Shown piece by piece: positions 33,311 to 40,025 of a DNA stretch of 64,000 nucleotides (the first letter of the stretch is position 1; every line of letters begins with the position of its first letter). This DNA comes from Methylococcales bacterium (GTDB lineage: Bacteria > Pseudomonadota > Gammaproteobacteria > JABHGC01). Location: NCBI GenBank assembly GCA_018672285.1, contig JABHGC010000183.1, positions 133-64,132 of the forward strand, given 5' to 3'. The translations under genes and the position numbers were made by a program. The notes under the pieces are model-generated. The model saw only the letters and a list, made by a program, of their open reading frames with translations, had not been told where the DNA came from and ran no database searches.

Positions 33311-36256
33311 CTAGCAGGATTGACTTTTAGCCCATTTAACCAGGATATCCACCAGCACATTTCTCGCTAATGGCTTGCTGACAAAATCCACCATGCCCAC
33401 GTCGAGACATGCTTGCCGCTCATGGGCTAAGGTGGCTGCAGACAAGGCAATAATCGGCACAGAAGACATTTCAGTAATCGCACACGCCGCATCTAGACCA
33501 TTCATGACGGGCATGTGTACATCCATCAGAATAACCTGGTAAGTGTTTTTATCCGCTTTGATTTTATCAACAGCTTGCTGTCCATCACTGACAACATCAA
33601 ATGTCATATTTAATTTTTGCAGTATGGCTTTTATTAATGTTTGGTTCGTCGTGTTATCTTCAGCGACTAAGACATGAACACCCGATAGTTTCGCTTCTTG
33701 CGCCATTCTAAATTGTTTGGAAACGTCGTCTTCTACCTCAAGCTCAGTCACTATCGGTAATAAGACACTGTAGTGAAACTGGCTACCTTCTCCAAGGGTG
33801 CTTTCTATCCCTATTTCACCGCCCATCAAATTCACCAACTGCTGACAAATAGTCAACCCTAAGCCCGTACCACCATATCGACGAGTGGTTGAGTTATCTG
33901 CTTGAGAAAAGGGATCAAACAAGTGTTTTTGCTGCTCTGCGGAGATGCCGATGCCAGTATCTGTCACTACAAATCGCACTATTGCTTCGTCGATAGCCCG
34001 ATAATCAAGCTGTATTTGCACTGAAACTTCACCTTCTTGAGTGAATTTTAAGGCATTACCAACCAAATTATTTAATACTTGGCCCAAACGAGTCGGATCA
34101 CCGACTAAAAATGGCGGTACATTATCATCAATGGATGCAACAAACGCCACACCTTTGCTTTGTCCGGTTGCAAAATACAGCTCTTGAGTTGCTTCTATGA
34201 TGGATTTTATTTCAAATGGGGTTGCTTCAATGGTCATCCGACCAGCTTCGATTTTAGAAAAATCAAGTATCTCATTGAGGATCACCATCAATGATTTAGC
34301 CGATGTTTGAACACTCTCTAAATACGCTCTTTGGTCATCTTTTAACTCGGTTGTTAACACCACATCGGTTAAACCAATGACCCCATTCATTGGTGTGCGA
34401 ATTTCATGGCTCATGTTCGCTAAAAAGCCACTCTTTGCCTTGTTTGCAGATTCAGCCACTTCTTTTGCTTCAATTAGCTCAGCAATCATATTCTTTTTGT
34501 CAGTCACATCGGAAAACATACCAATGTAACCCGTAATATGATCATCGGCACTTTTGATGGCTGAAACTGACAAATTGACTGGCACACGAGCACCCGATTT
34601 AGTGATAAAATCAACATTATACTCTTCAATAACACCCTGATTGGGATAATAGGTAAATGTCTCTGTACCGGGCTCTATCTTGCGTCCTATTTTTTCCGAA
34701 AGCGCTTTTGCTTGTGCTTCTACGTCTTTAGGGTCATGCCATAACGCAGGCGACTGCTTGTCTATTATTTCACTGGCATCATAGCCTAAGATTTTTTCAG
34801 CTTGTGGATTAAACGTCGTTACAACCCCGGATGTATTCATTGAAACAATCCCAACTGATGCCCCATTGAGTAACGCCTGATTAAATTGATGTTTTATGGC
34901 TAAAGAGTGTTCTGATAGTCGCTTAGAAAGTTCAAGGCTGGCACGCTTTGCCGCAAGCTTAAATAAAGTGAGGGTTTCTATCATTTCCTGCCCGGATTTC
35001 TCCTCATCATGCAGTCCCCACAAAATGCCACTTATATTACCACCTTCATCATATAAAGGTTCTCCACAATAACTTTCAGCCCCCATCTCAACAATGAGCT
35101 CATCTTTTAAGAATATCTGTGAAACCGCGCTATGAATGATTGTCGTACTACATTTATCCCTTACAATTTCACACGGCGAATTGATCAATGAATACTGAAA
35201 ATTCGCCTCCAACTTTCCGTCCTGACAAAAACTCTCAACTTGAACTAAATTATCACCAATTAAACGACCTACTCCCGCCCACCGAACATCTAAGCCAATG
35301 CATACTGCTGTCGCAATACTATCAAGTGCATTATCACCCGAGGCCACTGATAACATTTCTAATGCTTTGTTGTGTCTATTACGTGCCGATATGTCTCTAG
35401 CGGTTGCAATAAAGCGGGTAGAGTCATCCTTTAGAACATAGTGTTGAAGTAAAATTTCGACCGGAATGTCGTGCCCATTTTTATGTCGGTGCACTGTTTC
35501 AAAAGCGAGATGTGTCACGCCATCCTCACCCAGAGGCTCAATCATTTCCTCAAAATACGCACGATCCATGGCCGGTTTAATATCCACAGGTGTCATTGAG
35601 TATAACTCATCACGAGAGTAACCTAGCTGTTCAATCGCCGCTTCATTCACATAACAAAACTGTAATGAATCAGTCTCAAACATAAAAACACCATCAGCCA
35701 TTTGGTCCAGTGTTACTTTAAATTCTTCTGCCTCTTTTAACGTTTGCCTATACCGTGTTGATACTTCAAAACCAAAGTACGTGGCCAATGCAACCGCACT
35801 TGTGCCAGAGATCATCGCAAGCCATTGCTGAGCAGACTCATCCATAAACTCGTTTGGAAAAACCACCTGCCATTGAAATAGACCTAACAATCCAATCAGG
35901 GAAACGGAGCAAGCAGCTAACAAAATGGCCATCCACTTATCCAGCAAAAAAATCGTGATTAATGGACCAAGAATGAGCCAGATCAATAACGGTGACTGCA
36001 ACCCTCCACTAAAAAACACACACCAAACAGGTGCTAGCCATATTGAAAGAATCAAAAGCAATAAGGCCGCTCGAGGGTTGTTATAACGGTAAGTCCAAAA
36101 ACCGATCGCACTCAAAATGCTGTGCATCACAGGCCCGACTAAGCACCACCATGCTTCAAAAAAGATAAAAAATGCGGCAAATGATAAGGCTAGAAGAGCA
36201 CTGACTTTAAGATAACGAAGGGCTAAGGCGCTATTAACTTGACTCGTACTCAGCAT
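33311..36256 (-). CDS. Membrane hybrid sensor histidine kinase (TM-PAS-GAF-PAS-HisKA-HATPase-REC)
   Basis: FLANMSHEIRTPMNG, NLVGNALKFT, DTGIG, GGTGLGL, ILMDVHMP. Confidence 0.95.
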   Translation of the reverse strand: MLSTSQVNSALALRYLKVSALLALSFAAFFIFFEAWWCLVGPVMHSILSAIGFWTYRYNNPRAALLLLILSIWLAPVWCVFFSGGLQSPLLIWLILGPLITIFLLDKWMAILLAACSVSLIGLLGLFQWQVVFPNEFMDESAQQWLAMISGTSAVALATYFGFEVSTRYRQTLKEAEEFKVTLDQMADGVFMFETDSLQFCYVNEAAIEQLGYSRDELYSMTPVDIKPAMDRAYFEEMIEPLGEDGVTHLAFETVHRHKNGHDIPVEILLQHYVLKDDSTRFIATARDISARNRHNKALEMLSVASGDNALDSIATAVCIGLDVRWAGVGRLIGDNLVQVESFCQDGKLEANFQYSLINSPCEIVRDKCSTTIIHSAVSQIFLKDELIVEMGAESYCGEPLYDEGGNISGILWGLHDEEKSGQEMIETLTLFKLAAKRASLELSKRLSEHSLAIKHQFNQALLNGASVGIVSMNTSGVVTTFNPQAEKILGYDASEIIDKQSPALWHDPKDVEAQAKALSEKIGRKIEPGTETFTYYPNQGVIEEYNVDFITKSGARVPVNLSVSAIKSADDHITGYIGMFSDVTDKKNMIAELIEAKEVAESANKAKSGFLANMSHEIRTPMNGVIGLTDVVLTTELKDDQRAYLESVQTSAKSLMVILNEILDFSKIEAGRMTIEATPFEIKSIIEATQELYFATGQSKGVAFVASIDDNVPPFLVGDPTRLGQVLNNLVGNALKFTQEGEVSVQIQLDYRAIDEAIVRFVVTDTGIGISAEQQKHLFDPFSQADNSTTRRYGGTGLGLTICQQLVNLMGGEIGIESTLGEGSQFHYSVLLPIVTELEVEDDVSKQFRMAQEAKLSGVHVLVAEDNTTNQTLIKAILQKLNMTFDVVSDGQQAVDKIKADKNTYQVILMDVHMPVMNGLDAACAITEMSSVPIIALSAATLAHERQACLDVGMVDFVSKPLARNVLVDILVKWAKSQSC

Positions 36257-36291
36257 AAAATCGGATACTCATTTATTATTTAAGTCTTAAA

Positions 36292-36873
36292 CTAACGCGT
36301 TTCAACCAGTGCATCAACAAAGCCTATCAATTGAGGGAAAAAGCATAAAAAATCTTGCTCTAACGCTGCATATTGTGTGTGAAAATCATGCATCACATAA
36401 TCAACATCTATACGCCCTTTTGCTCTTTCAGCAATACGGCTAATGGCCGCTTCAATACCCTCTGCTTTTTCATATGCCATTAACCAATTATATTCAATCA
36501 TCGCATCTAGCCTGGTGTTAATGTCTTCTGGCAACAGTGCTGCATGTTGACGAAATAGTGCGTACACATTATCGACAAACTGTTGCAAAGGCATGCCAGT
36601 GAATGTTGACCAATTAACGGCTAAAAAATGATCGTAGAAAATATCAATGTGGACAGGCGCATAACGCCGATTTGCTGGTGACATTCTTCTTTTACTTGCC
36701 ATTACGGTGATATGTTTATCAGTAAACCCATCTATTTTCTGATGACAAAATAGGCCATATTGAAGCGCTTCAGGGTACTCAATGGCATGTTGTTGTTTGA
36801 TGAAATCCCCTAAAAAATTACCCAACTGCTGTAACCCTGGCGGGGATAAATACAAATGTGCCAAATAATTCAT
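36292..36873 (-). CDS. acpH: ACP phosphodiesterase (AcpH/YajB family)
   Basis: MNYLAHLYLS, GNFLGDF, HQKIDGFTD, DIFYDHFLA. Confidence 0.88.
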   Translation of the reverse strand: MNYLAHLYLSPPGLQQLGNFLGDFIKQQHAIEYPEALQYGLFCHQKIDGFTDKHITVMASKRRMSPANRRYAPVHIDIFYDHFLAVNWSTFTGMPLQQFVDNVYALFRQHAALLPEDINTRLDAMIEYNWLMAYEKAEGIEAAISRIAERAKGRIDVDYVMHDFHTQYAALEQDFLCFFPQLIGFVDALVETR

Positions 36874-36908
36874 AATATTGTCATTTTAGTAATGTATGGT
36901 GCAGATAC

Positions 36909-36922
36909 TTGATTTGAATCAA
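36909..36922. promoter_or_regulatory. FNR/ANR box
   Basis: TTGAT-TTGA-ATCAA is an exact match to TTGAT-N4-ATCAA. Confidence 0.75.
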
Positions 36923-37018
36923 ACATTTGTCATTTTTATTCATGTAATGTGTAAGGCTCGAAATCTAACAAACTTTCATTAGCAAGAAGAGCTAACACGA
37001 CTGTCCAGGAGTACTGCC

Positions 37019-37195
37019 ATGTCTCTTTCTCTGCAACACAATCATGCAACAACAAAAACCTGCGCGAATGAACACACAACGTCAGAGCACACTCAAAAAC
37101 CGATCTGCTTTCAAACTGACACTCGCTACACATGCACTAAAGCAAAATGCCAGCATCGAACAAACTGTCGCCAGTTACGCGCCTGTTGGTTATAA
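37019..37195 (+). CDS. 58-aa Cys-rich small protein (missed by ORF track)
   Basis: AGGAG 7 nt before ATG; C-x8-C-x4-C-x5-C cluster; downstream of the FNR box. Confidence 0.65.
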   Translation: MSLSLQHNHATTKTCANEHTTSEHTQKPICFQTDTRYTCTKAKCQHRTNCRQLRACWL

Positions 37196-37202
37196 CGGTA
37201 AA

Positions 37203-38216
37203 TCACCAAAAATCTGGGATGGGGTAATGCTCCATAATATAGCATAAACAGTCTTGACGAATCACTGTACTATCCAAGGTTAGCATTGCCAAAATCATCG
37301 GTTTATTGAGCTTTAATTGATGATTCTCACAGGTAAAATATTTACGGGTGACAACCGCGTCACTTTCGACCTCTGTCACGATAACAGGTACTGGCTCATC
37401 TCCTCGAATAGACGCTAGGAGAGTACCTTTTTTTAAATCTCGAAAATTCAGATGATCAAGATCGGCAATGAAGTCAATTTCAGCCTGTGGGTGTTGAAAA
37501 CCAAAACTGACTTCCTCTGGCACTTTAACGACCGCCACAGTATGAAAAACATCAATTTTGCCAATATTCGAATGATCAGACCAATCCTCTAACAACATAC
37601 AGTCATGTAAAAATGACAATGCACGATCAACCCCTTCAGCATCTCCTGCTTTACCACACTCTAGAGTGACTGCCGGACATAGCTGTGAAAATGCAACAGA
37701 CTGAACACATGTAGGCTCCGTAAAGTAGACGCAAATTTCACTAAACTTAGAGGCAAGGTAAAAGAATTTAGGGTCAATTTTATTCACACATGCATAATGC
37801 GGGTTGTATCCAGTGTTGTTATGAATGTCCACGCTTAAAAACACGTTTCGAACTTTCATCTCATCATAAATATCTTGCATCATCCGTGTTAAATCATTTT
37901 GCTCAGTACAATCAGGCCATACCCGATTATAATCAGGCTGATCTTCTAACCTTCTTAAATTGGCTTCAGCCGCTTCGACATTACCAACAAAAATCACCAA
38001 GTCTCTGGGTAAAATTTTGCCTTGAAAGTTTTTCAATAATTGTTGTATTGCAAGTAGACCTGAGTCTTCATTACCATGCTGCAGCACAGATACAAACATA
38101 GGCTCTCGCTTTAACCCTGAAAGGTTAATTAACGTTGGCCCACCCAATAACCCAAACAACTCACTTGCCCTGGCATCTAAAAAACCTTCCGGTATGGCGT
38201 TAACCGTTCTTAGCAT
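37203..38216 (-). CDS. M14-family (succinylglutamate desuccinylase/aspartoacylase-like) metallopeptidase
   Basis: LQHGNE, DYNRVW, VDIHN, TLECG; start at 38216 overlaps the upstream stop (ATGCTAA). Confidence 0.85.
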   Translation of the reverse strand: MLRTVNAIPEGFLDARASELFGLLGGPTLINLSGLKREPMFVSVLQHGNEDSGLLAIQQLLKNFQGKILPRDLVIFVGNVEAAEANLRRLEDQPDYNRVWPDCTEQNDLTRMMQDIYDEMKVRNVFLSVDIHNNTGYNPHYACVNKIDPKFFYLASKFSEICVYFTEPTCVQSVAFSQLCPAVTLECGKAGDAEGVDRALSFLHDCMLLEDWSDHSNIGKIDVFHTVAVVKVPEEVSFGFQHPQAEIDFIADLDHLNFRDLKKGTLLASIRGDEPVPVIVTEVESDAVVTRKYFTCENHQLKLNKPMILAMLTLDSTVIRQDCLCYIMEHYPIPDFW

Positions 38217-39622
38217 GTAGTTCCCCAAGTATGTACAGGCTGCCCTGTTTGCTGATGGTGGATATAACACTCTGTTAATTGCTGCATGGTTGCCCCGTGT
38301 TGCTGCATAAACTGCCGCTGCCAAGTCGCACCATTTTGTTGCTGCTCTATTCGCTGCTTTATAACATTTAAGTATAGTGTGCTATCCGCCTCTCTCACGC
38401 CTAATTGATTTAACCCTTGTTGGGCATAAGGCAATAAAACATCCGTAACCAGCTCAGACAAGGAAATAGATCGCTCTTGCCAAACAAGTGTTGTGCTCAA
38501 GCCATTTTTGGCACAGTCATAAAAATTGCGCTTTGCTGTCTCAAACGGAATCTGTTCAACAAGTTCTGCAGGCAAGCCTACGATCAAACCATAATAAAAT
38601 GCCGCATTTGCAACTGAGTCTGTGACTGTTGGGCCTGCTGGCACCACTCTGTTCTCTATTCTAAAATGTGGCTGACCACTTCCTGAAAAGCCAATTAACG
38701 GCCTATTCCAACGCCAAACAGTGCCATTATGTAACCGTAAATGCGCCAAGGTGGATTTTTTTTCAGGCATGATATGCGGCAACATAATGGGGTAAAAGGC
38801 CTCATTGGCTTCAAAACATTCAACTAAGGAATCGTGTACATAACGGTTACCAAACGTCACTCGCCGACCATAAGGCGTTGAGCCAACATCAATGCTTTGT
38901 TCAAACACAGGAATGCGGGATTCTGCCCATAAGGATTTACCCATTAAGTAGGGTGAATTCGCTGCCACACCGACTAATGGGCCAGAGATAATTTTAGACA
39001 AATTATAATATTGCGCGGCTTTTTCCAGCCCAACCTGTAAATGAATTTGAAACGATGTTGCCGTCGCCTCCAACATGACATTGTGTTTGTTTAACACAAG
39101 GTGTTCATCCCCTTTAATATCAAATTGAAATGGTTGATTACCTCGCATTGCCAGCACTTGATTGTTCAACGCGATATACCGTTGTTGCCCCGATATTTGC
39201 TTTAAGGTTAAATCTGCATTGGTTACTGTTGGTAAAATACCAACCATCGCCATTTCTAAACCCATGCTTTCAGCTTGTGCTGTGCAGCGATTCCAACGTT
39301 GCTGCAACTCATCCGCCAATGCTGAAAAACAGTCTTCAGTTAACCAGCGGGGATCGCCATTAATTTCAACATTAAACTGGGCAAGCTCTGGCACCACTTG
39401 GTCATCATTTAGACCTTGTAAAAATTCACTGTTTTTTGCAGCCGGACGGCCAGTGTCATCCACTAACCAAGCTTCTAACTCAAAACCAATTCGTAAAGGG
39501 TCATTGGCAAACTCGCCTTGCTCTGTCCAAGTTTTAAGCAGCTGCGTTTCCTGCTTGAGATAGGCTTTAAATCTTGCCTCATCTTCTGCTGTGAATTGGC
39601 TTTGAGCAATCTCTTCGCCCAT
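38210..39622 (-). CDS. Glutamate-cysteine ligase family 2 (GCS2-like) protein
   Basis: IGFELE, ELAQFNVE, TSFQIH, ANSP, WRWNRP, RIENRV; start moved to MGEEI. Confidence 0.85.
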   Translation of the reverse strand: MGEEIAQSQFTAEDEARFKAYLKQETQLLKTWTEQGEFANDPLRIGFELEAWLVDDTGRPAAKNSEFLQGLNDDQVVPELAQFNVEINGDPRWLTEDCFSALADELQQRWNRCTAQAESMGLEMAMVGILPTVTNADLTLKQISGQQRYIALNNQVLAMRGNQPFQFDIKGDEHLVLNKHNVMLEATATSFQIHLQVGLEKAAQYYNLSKIISGPLVGVAANSPYLMGKSLWAESRIPVFEQSIDVGSTPYGRRVTFGNRYVHDSLVECFEANEAFYPIMLPHIMPEKKSTLAHLRLHNGTVWRWNRPLIGFSGSGQPHFRIENRVVPAGPTVTDSVANAAFYYGLIVGLPAELVEQIPFETAKRNFYDCAKNGLSTTLVWQERSISLSELVTDVLLPYAQQGLNQLGVREADSTLYLNVIKQRIEQQQNGATWQRQFMQQHGATMQQLTECYIHHQQTGQPVHTWGTTC

Positions 39623-39717
39623 AGTTGTTATCCTTTTTATGATGCTTGCCTTGTAAAATACCCTCCTTTTCGTACTCATTTCAAGGGTTGAAACAAAGAA
39701 CACCGTCTACGTGTGTT

Positions 39718-39733
39718 TGTGATCTTACTCACG
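39718..39733. promoter_or_regulatory. CRP-like site
   Basis: TGTGA-TCTTAC-TCACG, 9 of 10 consensus positions. Confidence 0.45.
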
Positions 39734-39815
39734 TGGTAAAGCGACTGATTAAAAAGGAGAATATTGAGCAACTAAAGACTGACGTAACCCGTCATAAGGA
39801 GAAAGGAAATACCCG

Positions 39816-40025
39816 ATGAATTATTTGATTTTTGTACTGATATCAACATTCGTTTATTATTTTTTAAGAAGCTTATGGATAAAGTATCCATGCCTTAGAA
39901 CAGACAAAACCCTGATTGGTATTTTCAACACGTTTATAGGTGTAGATCGAGTACTCGGGTTTTTATTTGTCATCAGCGCCATGGGTATTACTAGCATCAT
40001 GCTATATAACAACTTTATTCGCTAA
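39816..40025 (+). CDS. Small two-TM hypothetical protein
   Basis: 69 aa, two hydrophobic stretches, AAGGA RBS. Confidence 0.55.
   Translation: MNYLIFVLISTFVYYFLRSLWIKYPCLRTDKTLIGIFNTFIGVDRVLGFLFVISAMGITSIMLYNNFIR

Follow-up and report, generated by a model that had tools for sequence, protein, structure and literature searches.

The window analysed here is a 64,000-nucleotide stretch of a contig from a Methylococcales bacterium. Two minus-strand genes in it are separated by a 329-nt gap (36874-37202), which contains an uncalled gene of 58 codons plus a TAA stop, hereafter ORF58 (37019-37195); all of its features lie on the plus strand. Divergent from ORF58 is acpH, encoding an ACP phosphodiesterase (36292-36873, minus strand; Pfam PF04336, ACP_PD, E 8e-60). 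On the other side is an AstE/AspA-like deacylase gene (37203-38216, minus strand), which is convergent with ORF58, the two stop codons being 8 nt apart. A GCS2-type glutamate-cysteine-ligase-like gene (38210-39703, minus strand) overlaps the start of the AstE/AspA-like gene by 7 nt, and these two look like a translationally coupled pair.

A perfect FNR box with palindromic half-sites, TTGATTTGAATCAA, is located at 36909-36922 (centre 36915.5), and boxes of the same type are present upstream of homologous genes. In E. coli and other Proteobacteria, class II FNR promoters carry a TTGAT-N4-ATCAA box centred near -41.5. Here, a -10 hexamer, TAATGT (36945-36950, plus strand), lies 22 nt past the box without a -35 match, which is expected because class II promoters are activator-dependent. 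From this geometry (box centre plus 41.5 nt, and the position of the -10 hexamer), transcription is predicted to start at 36954-36957 on the plus strand. A start near 36957 would place the box centre at -41.5 and give a leader of ~62 nt (36957-37018), in which the Shine-Dalgarno sequence AGGAG (37007-37011) stands 7 nt before the ATG at 37019. The box, the -10 hexamer with its class II-type spacing, the ribosome-binding site and direct repeats around the box had all been picked out in an earlier, sequence-only reading of this DNA, and each is present as described. The repeat TTGTCATTTT has its sole two plus-strand copies in the window here, and they flank the box: copy 1 (36878-36887) is followed by AG-TAATGT, and copy 2 (36927-36936), inside the spacer between box and -10, is followed by TATTCATG-TAATGT. 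The similarity extends imperfectly beyond the repeat (36878-36895 versus 36927-36950), so that the -10 hexamer has a TAATGT twin upstream of the box. Genome-wide, this 10-mer occurs 47 times on both strands, versus ~13 expected from composition.

No other perfect FNR box occurs in the window. Shuffled sequence contains 0.24 perfect boxes per 64 kb, with at least one in 23 of 100 shuffles, so the box taken alone is suggestive but not significant. What places it beyond chance is that the same arrangement of box, 22-nt spacer, TAnnnT hexamer and gene precedes homologous genes in other genomes, as described below. The predicted leader folds no better than shuffled sequences (z 0.67). Searches for terminators and structures downstream of ORF58, including between it and the AstE/AspA-like gene, gave nothing significant, and an Rfam scan of 34000-40000 with E values up to 10 returned only noise, with no known sRNA or riboswitch.

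The interval 37019-37195 translates exactly to the 58-residue peptide quoted in the sequence-only reading, with six Cys (residues 15, 30, 39, 44, 50 and 56) and five His. The exact peptide is absent from a collection of 15 billion proteins, on which grounds we regard ORF58 as unannotated, in keeping with that earlier description; a 71-residue paralogue from the same genome is present in the same collection. A word-based protein search and a Pfam search with ORF58 gave no match. phmmer against 1.84 billion representative proteins gave two matches only, one of them a repetitive 2186-residue protein. The other, P0002 (96 residues, E 8.6e-4), shares CFQTDTR..C....CQ.R..CR.L.A.W with ORF58 and has the C-terminus LCFQTDTREQCKESKCQWRSECRKLIASW, versus ICFQTDTRYTCTKAKCQHRTNCRQLRACW in ORF58. 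In the CFQTDTR stretch common to the two, the DNA differences are mainly synonymous. A profile HMM built from 52 relatives of the type to which ORF58 belongs (type B, below), with ORF58 itself left out, scored 36.1 bits (E 2e-12 over six frames) and matched in the ORF58 frame only. The match covers a conserved four-cysteine (Cys4) tail at residues 30-57 (37106-37189, plus strand), C-F-Q-T-D-T-R-Y-T-C-x4-C-x5-C-R-Q-L-R-A-C-W, identified by both alignments and the profile. ORF58 retains all six invariant columns of the family (four Cys, an Ala and a Trp). Its Cys spacing (C30-F31, C39, C44, C50) follows the family pattern, in which the first Cys is followed by an aromatic residue, and the C-terminal helix motif L-x-A-x-W is present as L53-R-A55-C-W57. 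The profile match and the invariant columns together establish that the C-terminal half of ORF58, its last 30 residues, is homologous to a real protein family.

A homologue search with the peptide, which the sequence-only reading had suggested, therefore does find relatives, and the idea that there might be none can be set aside. The Cys spacing that it had proposed, CF.T-x5-C-x4-C-x5-C, was right, as judged by the match to P0002, the profile score and the presence of a type A paralogue in the same genome. Its comparison with small SAP-like proteins is borne out in the Cys tail and fails for the rest of the protein, since ORF58 has no SAP-like part. Residues 1-29 contain no SAP/Rho_N-like helix-extended-helix and lack the nearly invariant I-[RW]-x-x-Q motif (the Gln is missing). 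They are instead polar and of low complexity, rich in Thr, His and Asn, and encoded by an A+C-rich stretch of DNA. ORF58 thus appears to be the shortest and most reduced form seen of an uncharacterised family of small Cys4 proteins.

Typical members of this family have ~66-142 residues and consist of a Rho_N/SAP-like helix-extended-helix followed by the tail C-[FY]-x7-C-x4-C-x5-C-x4-A-x-W. An iterated profile search collected 34 proteins, most of which have 125-142 residues and combine the Cys4 tail with a DUF2934 domain and a SAP-like segment. Two types can be distinguished. Type A follows the pattern M..EIR.IA...GIK....K..LIR.IQ..EGNF.CF.TA....CDQ..C.WR.DC and has no terminal L-x-A-x-W-x-R; its Rho_N-like N-terminus matches PF07498 in 15 of 19 members, in each case below the cut-off. 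Type B, which includes ORF58, follows C[FY].T[DE].R[YH].C....C.WR.EC..L.A.W.R-stop. A profile-profile comparison shows that types A and B are homologous (hhalign, 99.2%, E 2.8e-19). A six-frame search of 400 genomes of the class found matches with E up to 0.001 in 59 genomes, and types A and B together are present in at least 15% of this 400-genome sample. The 71-residue paralogue in the genome of ORF58 (C122:30396-30611) is of type A, with a Rho_N-like N-terminus and CFNTASDGQCDQTNCLWREDC; it is annotated in public databases, and no FNR box precedes it. Type B relatives include DUF2934-SAP-Cys4 proteins (P0002-P0034, from Methylococcales and metagenomes) and short W-x-I-W forms (from Halieaceae, Nevskiales, Salinisphaera and others). 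Short forms that lack SAP helix 1 are common in the family, as are short members whose polar N-termini are disordered. P0002 and P0014 (L006 and L066), to which ORF58 is most closely related, come from low-GC metagenome contigs. There they lie within V-type ATPase operons but on the opposite strand, and each, like ORF58, stands alone and converges with the adjacent gene. Searches of Pfam, NCBIfam and the PDB with ORF58, its relatives and whole alignments returned no entry covering the Cys4 tail, and a literature search returned no paper on the family or its link with FNR.

Evidence that the promoter belongs to the gene comes from comparison of family loci. The 40 nearest genomes gave no DNA match to the region, which left no orthologous intergenic region to align, and an AcpH-based search for syntenic loci in genome and metagenome contigs found nothing close. 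A collection of species-representative genomes was scanned with the back-translated tail pattern, which returned 80 loci, 53 of them clear family members. These derive from Halieaceae, Methylococcales, Chromatiales, Nevskiales, Steroidobacteraceae, Salinisphaera, Rhodanobacteraceae, Lysobacteraceae, Acidiferrobacteraceae and unclassified metagenome-assembled genomes. Counting boxes with at most one mismatch in the 131-nt window upstream of the first Cys codon, a box is present at 15 of the 53 family loci, versus a background of 0.010 per 131 nt elsewhere in the same loci; the binomial P of ~4e-18 is overstated, because the family loci are related (several are from Haliea) and not phylogenetically independent. 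A TAnnnT hexamer lies exactly 22 nt past the box on the side toward the gene in 12 of these 15, and on the side facing away in none. An initial set of type B loci from high-GC Gammaproteobacteria likewise has FNR-type boxes with a -10 hexamer 22 nt further on: L016 (box TTGATTTCAATCAA, -10 hexamer TACCCT), L039 (TTGATTCCGATCAA, TAGCCT), L034 (TTGATCCACGTCAT, TAGGCT) and L037 (TTGACGGATGTCAA, TATGTG). The arrangement is seen at 53-71% GC, a composition in which A/T-rich boxes are rare. In separate whole-genome searches, a box was found at 5 of 13 loci. Upstream regions in Halieaceae have diverged, with only the box, the -10 hexamer and a short CTAATCT element conserved. The first Cys codon lies 190.5 nt from the box centre in ORF58 and 187.5-286.5 nt from it in the relatives; the ATG of ORF58, 103.5 nt from the box centre, is also placed inside the range of the relatives.

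The boxes are unevenly distributed over the family and cluster in its short forms, which are the ones similar to ORF58. They precede 11 of 17 short W-x-I-W forms (13 of 17 if two mismatches are allowed), 3 of 16 SAP forms and none of 10 DUF2934-type members, and they are not enriched before type A genes (3 of 19, compared with background). The relatives closest to ORF58 in sequence, P0002-type and DUF2934-type proteins, are mostly without them. Clustering of the genes neighbouring the 53 loci identified no conserved partner gene, and the top clusters consisted of shadow ORFs in high-GC sequence. The conserved box and -10 hexamer can be read as the phylogenetic footprint of a class II FNR promoter directed toward the Cys4 gene. 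The class II geometry proposed in the sequence-only reading also fits this wider setting: several gammaproteobacterial lineages conserve it upstream of the Cys4 gene, in the orientation that faces the gene. ORF58 has the architecture seen in its relatives, with a perfect box. One locus, L039 (genome G205, 71% GC), has two FNR-type boxes, at locus positions 1308 and 1372, 64 nt apart, with a -10 hexamer in register only at the proximal box, a layout suggestive of control by tandem sites in this lineage.

The genome also encodes a regulator that could read the box. An FNR orthologue (C80:3561-4250) reaches 276 bits with NCBIfam model NF008365, whose cut-off is 228, and its N-terminus, C-S-L-C-N-L-S-E-I-C, has the form C-x2-C-x5-C. 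The 4.17-Mb assembly contains 22 perfect FNR boxes, 14 inside long ORFs and 8 intergenic. One of the intergenic boxes, TTGATCTATATCAA (C80:3461-3474), is shared by fnr and hemN, which diverge from it, the hemN start being 67 nt away. Such a placement is canonical for FNR targets and indicates an active regulon in this organism. A second protein of the Crp/Fnr family (C1:9204-9875) is FtrB/Dnr-like, with FtrB as its best match below the cut-off, and this paralogue could recognise the same box as FNR.

The AlphaFold model of ORF58 is unreliable (pLDDT 51), and that of a typical 69-residue member (pLDDT 76) has an N-terminal helix pair followed by a helix-loop-helix bearing the four Cys. The helix pair resembles SAP and Rho N-terminal domains weakly and below significance (rmsd 1.4-2.9 Å over 36-42 residues). 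A PDB sequence search and Foldseek gave no significant match, and none to the fold of the Cys4 tail. The family proteins lack a signal peptide, and the presence of four invariant Cys in proteins of the cytoplasm implies that they bind a metal centre, which the ORF58 product most likely holds on these residues. A C-x5-C element recurs in Fe-S sensors. Given this element, the lack of a CxxC pair and the apparent restriction of the gene product to times when oxygen is scarce, we infer that an oxygen-labile Fe-S cluster is more likely than Zn. ORF58 has further candidate ligands, namely two extra Cys and five His (H-N-H, E-H...E-H), which could add to the coordination.

Taken together, we consider it probable that ORF58 is a genuine, missed gene of the Cys4 family, transcribed from a class II FNR-dependent promoter and encoding a product that likely bears a metal. 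When oxygen is low, FNR with its [4Fe-4S] cluster, or possibly the second Crp/Fnr paralogue, would bind TTGATTTGAATCAA ~41.5 nt upstream of the start and recruit RNA polymerase to the weak TAATGT -10 hexamer, which has no -35 partner. The resulting mRNA would carry the leader of ~62 nt with its AGGAG ribosome-binding site and then the 58-codon frame. The product would be a Cys4 tail only, behind a polar His/Thr-rich N-terminus, and its four invariant Cys would hold the metal centre, with Fe-S favoured over Zn. FNR would thus turn ORF58 on as oxygen runs out; this switch, like the transcription start and the translation of the frame, is deduced from the DNA sequence.

The main rival to this reading, given the missing SAP part and the atypical codon usage, is that ORF58 is a relic, the decaying 3' remnant of a longer SAP-Cys4 gene, whose FNR promoter may still fire while its product is non-functional or absent. 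The N-terminal 29 residues are of low complexity and have no conserved feature of helix 2 (I-[RW]-x-x-Q), and the codon-usage log-odds of ORF58 are -6.9, versus +21 +/- 8 for native 58-codon windows (5th percentile +8), which makes this test uninformative or mildly negative. A 67-codon ORF (37044-37247, plus strand), which overlaps ORF58 in the +1 frame and starts ATG-CAA-CAA-CAA-AAA-CC, a stretch rich in A, R and N, scores +7.3, versus -6.9 for ORF58, and probably arises from the T-poor composition of the sequence. At the position that holds Trp in ~90% of members (C-x-W-R), ORF58 has His (C-Q-H-R), and its C-terminus is W-L-stop in place of W-x-R, one residue short, so that the terminal Arg is lost. 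Two genomes of the same family contain no copy of it. However, the frame is open, AGGAG is well spaced and the six invariant columns are intact, and a perfect box and -10 hexamer kept in exact register would be unexpected after loss of function. Other frames of the region hold no remnant of the N-terminal domain. Nor are the deviations peculiar to ORF58: other members too have disordered polar N-termini, and some accepted ones depart from C-x-W-R or from the terminal W-x-R (L025, L026, L045 and P0020, the last of which also ends without Arg). We therefore judge decay to be unlikely, while taking it more seriously than any of the other alternatives.

Those alternatives assign the box, or its transcript, to something else. 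The box could serve acpH, FNR activating or repressing the divergent promoter there, with its position relative to ORF58 being incidental. The acpH ATG, 42.5 nt away from the centre of the box, lacks a Shine-Dalgarno sequence, and a TAAAAT hexamer on that side lies 20 nt from the box and ends 10 nt upstream of the ATG (36873-36888, minus strand); from these two features, the acpH mRNA may be leaderless or nearly so, and its FNR dependence is conceivable. But the 20-nt spacer, which would put the box centre at about -39.5, differs from the 22 nt that separate box and -10 hexamer on the ORF58 side and in 12 of the 15 boxed relatives, and in the relatives, whose neighbouring genes differ, the -10 hexamer never faces away from the Cys4 gene. 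The exact 22-nt register, this rule of orientation and the lack of a conserved neighbour point to ORF58 as the primary target, and we see only a slim chance that the box belongs to acpH instead; that acpH is a second target, the box being used by both genes, is a conceivable, weaker form of the same idea. It is slighter still that the FNR-driven transcript acts as a regulatory RNA, antisense to the 3' end of the AstE/AspA-like gene or as an Hfq-binding sRNA, with the ORF secondary. Stop codons 8 nt apart and the lack of a detectable terminator would allow read-through into the neighbour, and the sequence is A/C-rich with an AAC-AAC-AAA-AAC stretch, but there is no Rfam match and no significant structure, and conservation of the tail as protein, with synonymous changes in the DNA, argues for a coding function. 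We give least credence of all to the box being a random palindrome in A/T-rich intergenic DNA that no regulator binds. Perfect boxes do arise in 23% of shuffled windows and 14 of the 22 in the genome are inside long ORFs, yet the same box, spacer, -10 hexamer and orientation recur before homologues in unrelated high-GC genomes.

If ORF58 is an FNR-dependent Cys4 gene, as we favour, it combines features of several known systems. With class II FNR promoters it shares the perfect box, the 22-nt spacer to a TAnnnT -10 hexamer, the lack of a -35 element and a genome with an FNR orthologue that has an N-terminal Cys cluster; it differs in that the gene is not a known member of the FNR regulon and that its start is predicted from geometry. 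The FNR-activated enterobacterial sRNA FnrS is likewise a short intergenic transcript, as is predicted for ORF58, from a class II FNR promoter, but the ORF58 region has no Rfam match even at E up to 10 and encodes a conserved peptide. Within its own family, ORF58 has the C-F-x7-C-x4-C-x5-C spacing of type A proteins, which differ from it in their clear Rho_N-like N-terminus, another C-terminal end and the lack of FNR-box enrichment. It matches type B relatives in the tail C-F-Q-[ST]-..R..C....C.WR.EC..L.A.W at all invariant columns, and the short forms among them share the FNR promoter; unlike them, it has just 58 residues, no DUF2934 domain, SAP helices or W-x-I-W/Q motif, and a His in place of the conserved Trp.

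A more distant parallel is with the WhiB-like (Wbl) proteins of Actinobacteria, small transcription factors whose four Cys, spaced C-xn-C-x2-C-x5-C, bind a [4Fe-4S] cluster sensitive to O2 and NO. The likeness is one of analogy only: both kinds of protein are small and have four conserved Cys, two of them spaced C-x5-C, a conserved Trp after the cluster region and a link with oxygen and redox physiology. The Cys4 family shows no sequence or fold match to Wbl proteins, has a different Cys spacing, lacks the G[VI]WGG turn and occurs in another phylum. It is tempting to speculate that the C-x8-C-x4-C-x5-C tail is a new Fe-S or redox-switch module labile to oxygen or NO, that SAP-bearing members are nucleic-acid-binding redox sensors of Gram-negative bacteria, and that short FNR-induced forms such as ORF58 are stand-alone modules made only in hypoxia, for example partners or decoys of a longer paralogue in the same genome. 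We regard this whole scheme as a long shot. If it were true, the SAP-bearing Cys4 members would have a function comparable to that of WhiB-like proteins in Actinobacteria.

The mechanism of control proposed here is textbook FNR; what is new is the conserved association of FNR with these small, uncharacterised Cys4 proteins, and the interest lies in the protein and not in its mode of control. The Cys4 module has no Pfam, NCBIfam or PDB counterpart despite its frequency in the class, and gene callers miss the shortest members of the family. Cultured carriers of boxed homologues, suitable for tests of function and cofactor, include Haliea sp. E1-2-M8, Kineobactrum sediminis F02 and Salinisphaera sp. 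SPP-AMP-43. The lineages with FNR-linked Cys4 genes include Halieaceae, Nevskiales, Salinisphaera and Steroidobacteraceae-like groups, making this gene a conserved and so far unrecorded candidate member of the FNR/ANR low-oxygen regulon of environmental Gammaproteobacteria.
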